From: Actinomycetota bacterium
Lineage (GTDB): Bacteria; Actinomycetota; Humimicrobiia; Humimicrobiales; Humimicrobiaceae
NCBI GenBank assembly: GCA_023488645.1
Contig: JAMDDL010000018.1
Location: 1-36,960, forward strand
Direction of reading: 5' to 3'
DNA: 36,960 nt
The position numbers were made by a program, and so were the translations under genes. Within the stretch, counting starts at the first letter, position 1. Each line of letters starts with the position of its first letter. Positions 11,952 through 16,150 of the stretch are shown piece after piece. The notes beneath the pieces were generated by a model, which had not been told where the DNA came from, did no database searches, and saw nothing but the letters and a program-made list of their open reading frames with translations.

Positions 11952-14258
11952 TTATTTAACATTTTTCCTTTTTTTATGAGCTGTAATTCTTTTTGTTATA
12001 TCAACAATAAGTAAAATAACTAAAAATAACCATGCAGCTTGGGTAAGTGTTCTTGAAATGACATCTTCTTTTGTTGAACCATAATATAAAGTTACGTTTT
12101 CCTGTCTGGGAATTACCATCATAAAAGAAGGTGATATTGCATAAGGCCCATCGGCTCCAATCACTTTCCAGTTGGGGAAATACGATACTTTTATTATATG
12201 CGGGATACCAATTGCTGTAGTCTTAAAAGTTATCTTTTCATTTTCAACATGCTCTTCCAGCACTTCTCCATCAGTTTTAATCGGAACTTTATTAATTTTA
12301 GTAACTTCATCAGAGCTGATTAATTTAAAATTACTTAGTCCTTTTTCGCCCTGATCCCAGATAATAAAAGGCTTATTTATATCATCATACTTAAACCAGG
12401 GTAGAATTGCATCATACCAGTCTTTTGTCTTGATTTTAACAGGTATATTTTTTAAAATTTCAACATATTTATTAGTTGTATTTATTTCATAAAAATTAAA
12501 AACGTCAAATTTTGCCATTAGTCTTGCATCAGGATTTTTATCAAGTTCCTCTATAACTTCAGGCGAGCTTGCAATCATATATCGGATATTCATCATTTTC
12601 ATATTTTCAACACCAAGTTTGACATTAAGTGGCGGGAGCTTTAATCCTGGAATAGCATTACTTGGTCTTTTTGAAAGTAAAGCCTGATTTGTAAAATGGA
12701 AGGGAGCAGTAAAAGCCCCTTCAACAAGCAACCCCTCCATAGTAGCACTTTTTGTCCAATATGGAATAAGTTCAAAAGCTCTTGTTGTCCCAAGTTTTTC
12801 AAGTGCATCATGATTTTGTTCAATCATCCATCTGCCTTCAGGTTTTGATTGAATATAAGCCATCATTAAACTGTAAATATTCCAGTATGGCTTTTTCTCA
12901 TAGCCTGAATAGTTGTATGTCGCCCAGCCTATTGATTTTGGCTGCAAAGGCATTATTATCCCAAACATTCCTAATGTTATTAATGGCACAAATAATAAAG
13001 CTACAATTTTTCTAACAGAAATTTTAAATTTTTGAAGCCATATCATTAAAATTCCAAATAAAACAAATAAAGTATATCCTGCAAGGAACAAATCTATTAT
13101 ATAAATATAAGGAAGCAATCTTGCATTCCAGATTCTACCTCCTGTAGGGATAAAAAATGCAAGATTTAAGATAAGATATGAGATTGTCAGCATTATATTT
13201 CGTCTGTCATCTCTTCTTGAAATAATAATTATATAAATTATTATTCCTATTGCAGCAAGCACAATTGCAACAATCATTTCTTTCGGGAATAAGGACTTAA
13301 AACTTTTCAGATTTTCCCATCCCATATTAGGCGTGTATTTCAGTTTTAGTGCAAAAGGAATACTCCAGAAAGCTGTTAATAAAAACCCGGTTATAAGAAC
13401 AGAAACCATATAAAATATATTTCTGATTTTCCTGTTTTCAACAAGAAGCCATGGCAGCATTATCAAAAGACAAACTGTCGTTAAAACATGGGAAAGTGCA
13501 ATCATCATTAAAATAAAGCAGTTTAAAACAAAAAGCCAGTTAAACTTAGCGCCTCGTTCAAGCGCAAGATGCATTGTTCCAATAAATAAAAAGCCAAGTG
13601 CAAAGCTAAAAGAATAACCAAATTCTCCTGCAAGAGTGCTTAAGAAATTTCCTCCATAAATTGAATAACTTTCAATAAATAAAAATAAAGTAGCTCCAAG
13701 TGCACCAAGCAGAGGATAAGGATATTTAAATCTGAACAGTTTAATCATCCAGTAAGCACATGCAGGTAAAATAAAAGATCCCAGAACAGTAATCACTTTA
13801 AAAGCAATGTTATAAGGAATTATTTTACTTAAAATTGCAACCATAAGATAAGGTACTGGAAAATAAAATTGAATAATAGGCATACCTGCATACCATCCGT
13901 TAGACCACCCCATAACTCTAAAATGAGGAAGCAGGTTATCAATCATAAACTTTATTCCGTAATGATGTGTCCCGGTATCTCCACCTGCAGTAGTAGTAAG
14001 ACTAAAAATCAGCCAGGGTCTGAAAACTACACAAATTGCCAGATAAATTAAGATAAATACAGTTAAAGTTGTAACTTTATTGATATTTATTTTTTTTATA
14101 TGAAGCTTATCTCTTATGAAACTGTTATTTATATACCAGTAATTTTGTTCAAAACCTCCTTCGATTCTTCCCTGTTCATCAATATAAAATTTAAATTTGT
14201 TTATTAAATTGTTAATAGAATTTGAAATAATATTAAAAAATTTTTTAATATGTTCCAT
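11952..14258 (-). CDS. Large polytopic membrane protein with a C-terminal soluble domain and a terminal TM anchor. Possibly a GT-C-like glycosyltransferase or PTPS-related membrane protein family member.
   Basis: 768 aa. There are more than 12 predicted TM segments in residues about 60-440, including a GGDTGTHHY loop after TM1, then about 300 aa that look non-membrane, then a final hydrophobic helix and KRKNVK. The functional call rests on architecture alone. Confidence 0.6.
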   Translation of the reverse strand: MEHIKKFFNIISNSINNLINKFKFYIDEQGRIEGGFEQNYWYINNSFIRDKLHIKKININKVTTLTVFILIYLAICVVFRPWLIFSLTTTAGGDTGTHHYGIKFMIDNLLPHFRVMGWSNGWYAGMPIIQFYFPVPYLMVAILSKIIPYNIAFKVITVLGSFILPACAYWMIKLFRFKYPYPLLGALGATLFLFIESYSIYGGNFLSTLAGEFGYSFSFALGFLFIGTMHLALERGAKFNWLFVLNCFILMMIALSHVLTTVCLLIMLPWLLVENRKIRNIFYMVSVLITGFLLTAFWSIPFALKLKYTPNMGWENLKSFKSLFPKEMIVAIVLAAIGIIIYIIIISRRDDRRNIMLTISYLILNLAFFIPTGGRIWNARLLPYIYIIDLFLAGYTLFVLFGILMIWLQKFKISVRKIVALLFVPLITLGMFGIIMPLQPKSIGWATYNYSGYEKKPYWNIYSLMMAYIQSKPEGRWMIEQNHDALEKLGTTRAFELIPYWTKSATMEGLLVEGAFTAPFHFTNQALLSKRPSNAIPGLKLPPLNVKLGVENMKMMNIRYMIASSPEVIEELDKNPDARLMAKFDVFNFYEINTTNKYVEILKNIPVKIKTKDWYDAILPWFKYDDINKPFIIWDQGEKGLSNFKLISSDEVTKINKVPIKTDGEVLEEHVENEKITFKTTAIGIPHIIKVSYFPNWKVIGADGPYAISPSFMMVIPRQENVTLYYGSTKEDVISRTLTQAAWLFLVILLIVDITKRITAHKKRKNVK

Positions 14259-14608
14259 AAAACTAAATTTCCCGATTTTAAATTTTAAATTTTAATTGGC
14301 TTTTTGGTTTTATTTATAATTTGGTCTTATTTAAGCTTTAATTTTAAATAAAAAAAAATTTTAATTTAATAAATTTAATAAAAAAAATAATTTTTAAAAT
14401 TAAATTGATATTATATATTTAAATTAAAAATTAAAAAATTTTTTTATTTATTTTTTATTATTTTATTTATTTTATTTTTTTTATTAAAATAAGTTAAACT
14501 TACTTTAGATTATCAATTTTACATATTATAATTTATTATAATTTCCATATATCAAAATATTTATATTTAATTTTTTATAAAATAAATTTGCAATTCTGGA
14601 GGTTAGAA

Positions 14609-16150
14609 ATGTCAGCACATCCCAAACCCTCTGAAAAAGATAAAAAAATAATTATTTCAAATAATACAATAGACAACAAAGTAATTTGCGCAATTTGTAA
14701 AAAAGCAATAAATAAAAAGTCTGATATTGAATTTCATCACAAAAAACCACTTACTTTTCAGGATAAATTTAATCCATCTAACTTTATTACTGTTTGCAAA
14801 AAACATCATAAGGAATTAGGTGAATTATCGCTTCTGGAATATAACACAATAAATGAAATGAAAAAATTTTTTGGCGGAAATGATATTAAAAAATTAAATG
14901 ATGTTTTAAAGTTAAAACTTGATAGTGATAATTTCGGGAAAAAAATTGATGCTGAAATTTTAAATGATAAAAACGAAATAAAAATAAAATTTAAAAATAA
15001 TAGCAGCAAGAATAATAATGACGATAATAATGTTAATTTTATAATAACTTACCCTTTATCTACCTGCCCTTCAACAGGTTTTAAATATTTTTATATTGTT
15101 CTTCCTGCAGAGTATATTAACAATGATGAGGAGCTTCAGCCAAGACCGCTGGAATTTGAAAGATTATGGGAATTATACAGGCATCTTCTTACAAATAGCC
15201 AGTTAACTCCATCTGTTTGCAGGCTGACTGAAAATAAAATTCTTTTATTTGATGGCCAGCATAAAGCTGCAGCACAGGTATGGGCAGACAGAAAAGAAAT
15301 AGAGTGTAAGGTTTATATTGAACCAGATATTAAATTTCTTAAAGAAACAAACCTTATAGCACATGATAAATTAAGACAAATGCCTTTCTTTACCTCAGTT
15401 CTTATAAATAAATGGGCAAGTATATTTGCGCAGGAATGGAAAGAATATATGGCTTCAAAAGGGGTTAAATCTGAATCAGGTTTTGTTTCTTTTTTAATAA
15501 GTAAAGGTAAAAAGAGAGCTGAAGCTATTAATATGATTGAAAGCAATATCTTTGACAGTATAATTGAAGACAAAAAAAATTCAATAATAAGATATGTTAG
15601 TGAATTTAGCCCGATTATTAAAAAACCTCTAACCACAAACAGACTTAAAAGTGTAATTTTTAAAAAATTTATTGCAGCTGCTCCTCTTGAAATAGATATT
15701 GAAGAATCAGACAGACTTAGAGAAATAGAGAGGAAAAATGTTATAGAACTATTAAATATGATTACAGAATATACATTAAAAGATAAATGGGATCCTGATA
15801 AAAATGATGAAAATCATAAAATTTCTGAAAGAATTTATCTTTCAGGTTCTTTTAAAGCCTGGACTGGCATATTAAAAGATGCAATAGCAGCAATTCTTGA
15901 ACTTTTTGATGAAAATGAAAGAAAAGAAATTTTTCTCAGGGAAATAAGTGAAGAAAACTGGAAAAATATTGAAAATTGCATTTCAATAATGTCTGAAAGA
16001 AGAGTTTGGCAGGATGATTCTGAAGAAAATTATAACATGCTAAGATTATCAAACGATAATCAGGTCAGAAAATACCTTTCAAGAAGAGGAATAAGTGTAA
16101 ATGAATTACTTAGCAGATCAGGACTTGGTGCAGACAATTTTATTGATTAA
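14609..16150 (+). CDS. HNH endonuclease fused to a DGQHR (DndB/ParB-Srx-like) domain protein
   Basis: GGAGG lies 6 nt upstream of ATG 14609; the track starts at an upstream TTG (14588). The N-terminus CAICKKAINKKSDIEFHHKKPLTFQDKFNPSNFITVCKKHHKEL is a CxxC...HH...N...CxxHH HNH zinc finger. An N/K-rich linker follows. LLFDGQHKAAAQVWADRKEIECKVY matches the DGQHR motif. Confidence 0.8.
   Translation: MSAHPKPSEKDKKIIISNNTIDNKVICAICKKAINKKSDIEFHHKKPLTFQDKFNPSNFITVCKKHHKELGELSLLEYNTINEMKKFFGGNDIKKLNDVLKLKLDSDNFGKKIDAEILNDKNEIKIKFKNNSSKNNNDDNNVNFIITYPLSTCPSTGFKYFYIVLPAEYINNDEELQPRPLEFERLWELYRHLLTNSQLTPSVCRLTENKILLFDGQHKAAAQVWADRKEIECKVYIEPDIKFLKETNLIAHDKLRQMPFFTSVLINKWASIFAQEWKEYMASKGVKSESGFVSFLISKGKKRAEAINMIESNIFDSIIEDKKNSIIRYVSEFSPIIKKPLTTNRLKSVIFKKFIAAAPLEIDIEESDRLREIERKNVIELLNMITEYTLKDKWDPDKNDENHKISERIYLSGSFKAWTGILKDAIAAILELFDENERKEIFLREISEENWKNIENCISIMSERRVWQDDSEENYNMLRLSNDNQVRKYLSRRGISVNELLSRSGLGADNFID

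Follow-up and report, generated by a model that had tools for sequence, protein, structure and literature searches.

A gene at positions 14609–16150 of the forward strand, in a 36,960-nucleotide stretch of DNA from an Actinomycetota bacterium of the Humimicrobiaceae (contig JAMDDL010000018.1; this whole stretch is referred to below as the window), encodes a protein that joins an N-terminal HNH nuclease domain to a C-terminal module of the ParB/Srx superfamily. We are highly confident that these two domain assignments are correct. The protein family to which this HNH-ParB gene belongs is large, unannotated and uncharacterized, but widespread. By analogy with known immune enzymes, we propose that its product may be a single-polypeptide, partner-less HNH nuclease gated by nucleoside triphosphates (NTPs), with a role in immunity against phages or mobile DNA; our judgement is evenly balanced when mechanism and role are taken jointly.

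The pairing of a ParB/Srx-fold NTPase with a His-Me nuclease, as in GmrSD, BrxU, SspE, and DndI, is an established way of detecting foreign or modified DNA, and ParB-type cytidine triphosphate (CTP) switches are increasingly found well beyond chromosome segregation. The present family joins both functions using different versions of the domains in the opposite order, its sensor module is covered by no profile library, and it spans hundreds of bacterial and archaeal species, most of them uncultured.

Domain architecture and conservation

The original prediction had described an apparently intact HNH motif near the start of the protein, and this description held. The window protein contains the motifs C27-A-I-C30, E-F-H43-H44-K-K-P47, N-P-S-N58, and C63-K-K-H66-H67, in which C27, C30, C63, and H66 are the predicted zinc ligands; the predicted catalytic residues are H44 as general base, N58, and H67 as metal ligand. 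The Pfam HNH model matched the window protein with an E value of 0.017 and 15.7 bits, under its curated cutoff of 21.4 bits, and PHROGs HNH families matched residues 24–86 with an E value of 4.4e-6. When 74 diverse family members were scanned, 71 matched PF01844 (best E value, 1.3e-11), and many family members matched the HNH models of IscB, Cas9, and PtuB; the HNH consensus of the broad family reads CxxC...DHxxP...GG.T...NL...HxxCNxxK. Across the same 74 members, C27 and N58 were conserved in all, H/N at position 67 in 73, H44 in 72, and C30 in 64, and the window protein holds the complete set of HNH residues. In the AlphaFold2 (AF2) model, the domain is composed of strands 24–26, 40–44, and 59–63 and a helix at 64–70, with a predicted local distance difference test score (pLDDT) of ~90, and Foldseek matched this region to the HNH domains of Cas9 and Gme. 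Sequence searches of the PDB with the protein and two family profiles returned just noise-level IscB-HNH matches and coiled-coil artefacts. In the distant members P0161 (631 aa), P0185 (728 aa), and P0205 (578 aa), an extra extension of 60–220 residues precedes the HNH domain.

The modelled structure firmly supports a ParB/Srx fold for residues ~158–240. AlphaFold models had a pLDDT of 83 for the full protein and 79 for the C-terminal module alone, and Foldseek searches of the PDB with the C-terminal module, from both the full and the module models, returned solely ParB/Srx-superfamily entries, with a probability of ~1.0. The matches included the ParB proteins of M. xanthus, B. subtilis, and C. 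crescentus with CDP or CTP-gamma-S, as well as Noc, KorB, PadC, sulfiredoxin, SbnI, and a SerK-like protein, and the ParB alignments spanned 230–256 columns, reaching into the helical region that follows. BrxU-, SspE-, and GmrSD-type structures were absent from the top 50 PDB matches. In the BFVD library of viral structures, the module matched ParB/Srx proteins, with two DNA-sulfur-modification-associated (DndB-annotated) proteins at ranks 4–5. Alignment by hhalign with B. subtilis ParB (ParB sequence 100% identical to 6sdk) gave an exact register with weak statistics (E value, 0.08): Q177-P-R179 was paired with Box I of ParB (Q37-P-R39), and G216-Q-H-K219-A-A-A-Q with Box II (G77-E-R-R80-F-R-A-A), at equal spacing between the boxes. 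In ParB CTPases, the Box I and Box II loops bind nucleotide.

The Box II-like segment, LLFDGQHKAAAQ (L212 to Q223 in the window protein), had been read as a DGQHR motif. Its DGQH part is invariant, and the fifth residue is K in 72 of the 74 members and R in only one, making DGQHK the family motif. The DGQHR domain has been defined by a near-invariant DGQHR, a QR pair, and FxxxN (PMC4619093). The HNH-ParB family has QPR in place of the adjacent QR pair, and no conserved FxxxN was seen in the family alignments A1 and A3. Positions that are near-invariant in the 74 members comprise D173, Q177-P-R179, R205, F214-D-G-Q-H-K219, K234, S/T288-E289, R371, E374, and W467, of which E289, R371, E374, and W467 lie in the all-helical region at residues 241–513 and are invariant family-wide. 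This helical region sits where the DNA-binding domain follows the N-domain in ParB and is probably DNA-binding. The Asn/Lys-rich linker reported in the original prediction is present between the two parts of the protein and is predicted to be disordered, with pLDDT below 50 at residues 133–141. In a comparison of 15 members from Actinomycetota, Chloroflexota, and one archaeon, residues ~142–513 were far more conserved than the HNH domain, with 52–70% identity.

Profile libraries recognized little of this conserved module. There was no significant match to its ~370 aa in Pfam, NCBIfam, PHROGs, or PADLOC in any member scanned, and single-sequence searches of Pfam, NCBIfam, and PADLOC with the window protein gave only HNH matches below threshold and none to the module. 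Weak matches to DUF6551 (PF20188) occurred in 6 of the 74 members (best E value, 8e-5) and to TIGR03187 in 3 of the 74 (best E value, 0.0075). The DndB family PF14072 was matched by none of the 112 members scanned (38 + 74), and neither DUF262 nor DUF1524 was matched in the window protein or the family by Pfam, nor DUF262 by PADLOC. In view of these searches and the DGQHK motif, placement in a "DndB branch", as had been suggested, is only a weak lead.

Family distribution and genomic context

A homolog search with the window protein found at least 460 close full-length homologs of about 490–510 aa. HMMER searches with the C-terminal module against 1.84 billion proteins recovered 390 clusters at 50% identity, 267 of them at E <= 1e-10; the cluster members are nearly all ~500 aa long, with the ParB-like module beginning at residue ~130–160, and the HNH domain precedes the module in nearly all of the ~390 clusters. 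No bridge to DndB, DUF262, or ParBc appeared among the top 150 hits inspected. The gene occurs in ~370 of 185,579 species-representative genomes (~0.2%), patchily across phyla. Its bacterial carriers include members of Actinomycetota, Chloroflexota, Acidobacteriota, Bacillota, Bacteroidota/Ignavibacteria, Planctomycetota, Proteobacteria, and Saccharibacteria, and its archaeal carriers members of Methanothrix, Methanosarcinales, and Thermoplasmatota; the closest relatives of the window protein are labelled Humimicrobiaceae or Humimicrobiales (Actinomycetota). No family member was found in 72,556 plasmids or 50,697 phage genomes, and a relative was present in 3 of 2.9 million viral contigs. At two loci (L043 9977–11467 and L085 9935–11440), frame breaks divide the family gene into two or three consecutive open reading frames (ORFs), which look like tandem copies but are one gene and may be pseudogenes or indel errors in long-read metagenome-assembled genomes (MAGs); these two loci were left out of the evidence.

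Neighbouring genes were surveyed at 64 loci by BLAST clustering of the ORFs within ±6 kb and by phmmer on immediately adjacent same-strand ORFs. No partner gene was conserved family-wide across these loci, where synteny was solely clade-local. The label "orphan" given to the gene earlier is therefore right in the sense of lacking a partner gene and wrong in the sense of lacking relatives. Downstream ORFs of ~200–235 aa that recur by size were unrelated proteins by phmmer, and no parA, smc, or rec gene recurred among the neighbours at the 64 loci. Outside Actinomycetota, the neighbours were essentially all locus-unique, and many were defence or mobile-element genes. In Methermicoccus, the family gene lies by type III CRISPR genes and HEPN/MNT pairs, and HEPN_AbiV is a further neighbour of this kind. 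Restriction-modification (R-M) neighbours comprised HsdM, HsdR, and N6 methylases; a pair of SNF2/NOV_C helicase and DUF1156 methylase, a DUF6079 ATPase, and ImmA/IrrE were other defence-type neighbours, and MmeI, an Eco57I-like methylase, and an AAA_23/AAA_15 ATPase were found as well. One context combined type III R-M with DUF429, UvrD, and a recombinase, and another held three integrases, several methylases, Mrr_cat, and NYN. In bacteria and archaea as a whole, the family has the character of an accessory gene spread horizontally, often located in restriction or defence islands.

In a Bacillota MAG (L042, 11457–17572), the family gene shares a few bases with the beginning of a gene for an SNF2 helicase with NOV_C (DUF3883-like), which is followed by a DUF1156 methylase gene; the family gene may be in an operon with this helicase-methylase defence module.

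The lineage of the window presented a different picture. In ~20 related Actinomycetota loci, the HNH-ParB gene lies in a recognizable syntenic region with genes for a 768-aa membrane protein, a Na/Pi cotransporter, LDcluster4, GlnRS, PGI, and others. Between the locus of the window (L001) and its closest relative L011, the identity was 79% for the HNH-ParB gene and 84–89% for the neighbours; the corresponding values were 60% and 68–72% between L001 and L008, and 84% and 86–93% between L008 and L018. Because the divergence of the gene tracks that of its neighbours, comparison of these sequences indicates that in this clade it is a long-term vertical resident rather than a recent island insertion, having become a stably, vertically inherited chromosomal gene.

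Several observations concern the thymidylate synthase gene beside the family gene. In the window, thyX (PF02511; 16206–16895) begins 55 bp downstream of the HNH-ParB gene, as had been noted, with no terminator-like site in the gap. ThyA, which is non-homologous to ThyX, is encoded within ~2 kb in seven distinct related Actinomycetota loci, even where the other flanking genes differ. A tblastn search of all loci found no thy gene near the family member in the other ~80, and L011 (79% identity) has neither thyX nor thyA at the site. The thymidylate synthase neighbour is a clade-local feature, not a family feature. The gene order is HNH-ParB, thyX, Na/Pi cotransporter in the window and HNH-ParB, Na/Pi cotransporter, thyA in L008, L017, and L018, and in L007, L015, L019, L020, and L026, the HNH-ParB gene is followed by thyA. 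The occurrence of thyX at essentially the position that thyA has in relatives looks like in situ non-orthologous displacement of thymidylate synthase. The "ThyA" of L007 (11047–11880) and its orthologs match PF00303 and have an atypical N-terminus (LSPEEIITFSSGDIPVLKVEG...); they could be either true thymidylate synthases or paralogs of the pyrimidine hydroxymethylase type.

The features of the gene and its surroundings are listed in Table 1. The ORF starts with ATG, and homologs share the start at MSAHPEP. The A/T-rich spacer upstream, the duplication at the end of the gene, and the position of thyX were all present as first described. The spacer is presumed to be the promoter region of the HNH-ParB gene; a promoter-like site lies at 14504–14532, and such sites were not enriched over shuffled sequences. 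With a guanine-cytosine (GC) content of 30% for the window and 9–29% for the other intergenic regions, the value for the spacer is extreme, not unique. The HNH-ParB gene itself has 28% GC, equal to the neighbouring genes. The unit of the 19-bp duplication reads AAT TTT ATT GAT TAA AAAA and leaves the protein unaffected; the duplication also occurs in an independent assembly of the same species (L002) and is absent from L011, and it is probably a recent slippage event. The divergently transcribed gene for the 768-aa polytopic membrane protein (11952–14258, reverse strand) has no Pfam match, and its product shows 67–84% identity in five related loci (cluster c4). Scanning the window from end to end for Rfam families and tRNAs revealed neither. 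As the original prediction had stated, dnd, ssp, dpd, brx, and methyltransferase genes are missing around the window gene, with no Pfam match to any of them within 10 kb on either side.

Table 1. Features of the HNH-ParB gene, its product, and the adjoining sequence
Feature	Positions in the window	Strand	Basis or remark
Complete gene, 513 codons + stop	14609–16150	+	Conserved ~500-aa HNH + ParB/Srx-like family
Ribosome-binding site GGAGG	14598–14602	+	7 nt before ATG, read directly from sequence
Divergent intergenic spacer, 350 bp, 9.4% GC	14259–14608	.	Between 768-aa membrane-protein gene (-) and HNH-ParB gene
HNH (beta-beta-alpha-metal) nuclease domain, residues ~20–72	14666–14824	+	Profiles, conservation, Foldseek
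Connector, residues 73–157, two helices + small beta-hairpins	14825–15079	+	
Asn/Lys-rich insert, residues ~129–143	14993–15037	+	Disordered, length variable in homologs
ParB/Srx-fold nucleotide-binding-type domain, residues ~158–240	15080–15328	+	Foldseek, hhalign register, conservation
Box I-like motif N172-D-x3-Q177-P-R179	15122–15145	+	
Box II-like motif F214-D-G-Q-H-K219	15248–15265	+	
All-helical C-terminal region, residues 241–513	15329–16147	+	No profile library match
Exact 19-bp x2 tandem duplication AATTTTATTGATTAAAAAA	16136–16173	+	Spans last four codons + stop

Proposed function and alternative explanations

In the proposed mechanism, the N-terminal HNH (His-Me finger) domain would be the catalytic part, tethered via the flexible linker to the ParB/Srx-type module. 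By analogy with ParB CTPases, this module would bind an NTP via its QPR and DGQHK loops, and the helical domain would engage DNA. NTP binding or hydrolysis would then license or restrain cleavage of DNA by the HNH domain, by analogy with GmrSD, BrxU, SspE, and DndI, and recognition of some property of foreign DNA might be linked to this gating. Immunity of this kind could be type IV-like or nucleotide-gated, with a nuclease that depends either on modification or on nucleotide state; either form of gating would explain how a solitary nuclease spares its host. An immune role seems most likely because of this accessory, horizontally spread character of the family and its frequent location in restriction or defence islands. 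A stand-alone defence nuclease, one of the functions first suggested for the gene, is the best supported by these defence and mobile-element contexts in other phyla. In the lineage of the window, the gene has no defence-island setting and stands among syntenic housekeeping genes.

Several findings weigh against the proposed immune nuclease. Some of them come from genomic context: in the clade of the window, no defence island surrounds the gene, and synteny among housekeeping genes with divergence in step is atypical for fast-turnover defence genes. The association with defence genes elsewhere, counted without a background rate, is not universal: when loci were chosen with less bias, only 3 of 10 large neighbours belonged to the defence type, the others including UvrC, RF3, and PAS/GAF sensors. 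PADLOC models matched nothing in the protein beyond generic HNH. The conservation of the C-terminal module across phyla, 52–70% identity, is unusually high. Other findings concern the HNH domain itself. In the subfamily of the window protein, 30 of 37 members carry D, N, or G in place of C30. In a subclade comprising P0099, P0104, P0109, P0117, P0118, and P0119 (for example, L010, L030, and L032), position 44 has N, F, L, or Y instead of H and position 67 has K instead of H; CxxC is kept and the C-terminal module is highly conserved, so that the HNH domain of these proteins may be inactivated or re-wired. Two genes (L028 2137–3579 and L051 10001–11062) are without the HNH domain: an in-frame stop precedes the ParB-like module by 21–33 codons, and a remnant of the HNH domain was not found within 1.5 kb. 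Because of the loss of C30, the changes at H44 and H67, and these HNH-less versions, the HNH domain may not be essential to the conserved function of the family.

The main rival explanation is a housekeeping or domesticated DNA-transaction enzyme of Humimicrobiia-like Actinomycetota, which we consider unlikely while giving it serious weight. Here, a ParB-like switch or clamp would position an HNH nickase for genome maintenance, and repair, processing of recombination intermediates, and chromosome or nucleoid handling are options within this single explanation. It would account for the synteny with housekeeping genes, a divergence in step with that of GlnRS, the Na/Pi transporter, and the membrane protein, and the GC content equal to that of the neighbours; the very strong purifying selection on the C-terminal module and the nearest structures, which are ParB, Noc, and KorB and not immune DUF262 enzymes, point the same way. 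Such an enzyme would hardly be expected in ~0.2% of species genomes with a distribution that hops between phyla, or in contexts that in other phyla are mostly variable and rich in R-M, CRISPR, or integrase genes; moreover, no parA, smc, or rec genes recur, and no link to a known repair or partition operon was seen. The irregularities of the HNH domain lead to another explanation, in our estimate quite improbable, in which the enzymatic activity would reside mainly in the ParB/Srx-like module, as an NTPase, as a nickase of the kind of Osa or RK2 ParB, or as another nucleotide-dependent enzyme, and the HNH domain would be an accessory module, DNA-binding or a structural zinc element, decaying in some lineages. 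The module is far more conserved than the HNH domain, its invariant E289, R371, E374, and W467 lie outside the canonical NTP loops, and C30 is lost in most near relatives, with H44 and H67 altered in the subclade and HNH-less versions in existence; ParB/Srx proteins with intrinsic nuclease activity have also been reported, according to work cited in PMC12839542. This explanation is opposed by the HNH catalytic residues, near-invariant across the broad family (72–74 of 74), and by the HNH-first architecture kept in nearly all ~390 clusters.

We assign very little probability to the two explanations that remain. A free-standing, selfish HNH endonuclease of the homing type, targeting or riding with a thymidylate synthase gene, had been raised as an alternative in the original prediction, and the location of thyX 55 bp downstream without an intervening terminator, together with ThyA within ~2 kb in seven distinct related loci, would suit it. 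However, the other ~80 loci have no thy gene near the family gene, the closest relative L011 has no thyX at the site, and the gene is inherited vertically at the rates of host genes. Phages, plasmids, and viral contigs carry practically no family members, the gene is not set in an intron or intein, and a ParB-like module of 370 aa is not known as the DNA-binding module of a homing endonuclease. With the thymidylate synthase neighbour limited to one Actinomycetota clade, where inheritance is vertical, and with the family nearly absent from phages and plasmids, we regard this explanation as largely refuted. Equally remote is a DndB-like regulator or accessory ATPase of a phosphorothioation or 7-deazaguanine modification system that became separated from its cluster. 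The DGQH motif, the weak TIGR03187 matches in 3 of 74 members, and the two DndB-annotated viral proteins among the BFVD matches recall DndB, whereas none of the 112 scanned members matched PF14072, no dnd, ssp, or dpd gene lies near the window gene or recurs at the 64 loci, and a conserved catalytic HNH domain is not a feature of DndB. Without a PF14072 match and a dnd context, the DndB-regulator reading is not supported.

As yet, the HNH-ParB protein is one of many predicted single-gene nucleases, with no defence context in its own genome. If it is indeed an NTP-gated stand-alone nuclease, it would be a compact new immune effector and a potential scaffold for a programmable nickase, as well as a clean system for studying the control of a covalently attached nuclease by a nucleotide switch of the ParB type, and its vertical inheritance in one Actinomycetota class would present a case of long-term retention or domestication. 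A bolder interpretation, which we offer tentatively and hold to be doubtful, would make it the founding example of a distinct, unannotated group of partner-less immune or genome-surveillance nucleases, in which a ParB-type switch licenses an N-terminal HNH domain of the Cas9/IscB type, the C-terminal ~370 aa constitute a new branch of the ParB superfamily, and the gene has become a domesticated core gene in one deep Actinomycetota class. The switch of such proteins would possibly work by CTP-driven, clamp-like engagement of DNA and be structurally closer to ParB, Noc, and KorB than to DUF262.

Comparison with known systems

Immune enzymes that combine a ParB-fold NTPase with a His-Me nuclease are known, and in the DUF262-DUF1524 enzymes, the DGQQR domain senses DNA marks and, through NTP binding or hydrolysis, governs the activity of the His-Me nuclease (PMC11662687, PMC4619093, PMC12065111). 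ParB-CTPase-fold::HNH fusions were flagged as novel and uncharacterized in a 2025 preprint (bioRxiv 10.1101/2025.10.10.680097); the present family shares with these fusions the general pairing of a ParB fold and an HNH domain. That survey rested on Pfam-detectable ParB-fold domains; because the ParB-like domain described here is invisible to Pfam, the HNH-ParB family is probably a separate lineage that is not listed there. In PADLOC-DB v2.0.0, no system-specific match was found; PtuB, Cas9, and REase models matched just at the level of HNH, all within the first ~70 residues of the protein.

With DndB and other DGQHR proteins (TIGR03187, PF14072), the family shares the DGQH core of the pentapeptide and membership in the ParB/Srx superfamily, and weak hidden Markov model matches in a few members, with none for the window protein, link it to DUF6551 (PF20188) and TIGR03187. 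It differs from them in having K instead of R at the fifth position, in the FxxxN signature, for which no conserved counterpart was found, and, as regards DndB, in its fused HNH domain and the absence of a dnd context. The CTP-dependent clamps ParB, Noc, and KorB are its best structural matches, sharing the spacing of QPR (Box I) and G-x-x-basic (Box II), and as in ParB, a helical domain comes after the N-domain, where the DNA-binding domain would lie. Unlike these clamps, to which its sequence similarity is marginal (the hhalign E value given above), the family carries a nuclease; compared with ParB, it has GQHK for GERR, Box III (ENLQR) is not conserved family-wide, and there is no ParA partner, parS context, or match to the C-terminal dimerization domain.

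The closest proposed functional parallels are GmrSD, BrxU, SspE, and DndI, in which one polypeptide likewise holds both a His-Me nuclease and an NTPase-type sensor of the ParB/Srx fold whose phosphate loop is DGQxR-like, and which are likewise frequently located in defence islands. The earlier claim of a reversed domain order proved correct in comparison with GmrSD, SspE, and DndI: the nuclease of the family is N-terminal and of the PF01844 type. It is a classical zinc-knuckle HNH domain resembling those of Cas9, IscB, and PtuB, unlike DUF1524, and the sensor module has DGQHK where DUF262 has DGQQR. The earlier description as a domain-permuted GmrSD did not hold up, given that DUF262 and DUF1524 were unmatched and that BrxU- and SspE-type structures were missing from the top fold matches. 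The family departs from this group in DUF262, DGQQR, DUF1524, and domain order; it would be functionally analogous to GmrSD, BrxU, SspE, and DndI but is not a member of their group. GmrSD and BrxU act as single-gene effectors, as is proposed for the partner-less HNH-ParB protein.

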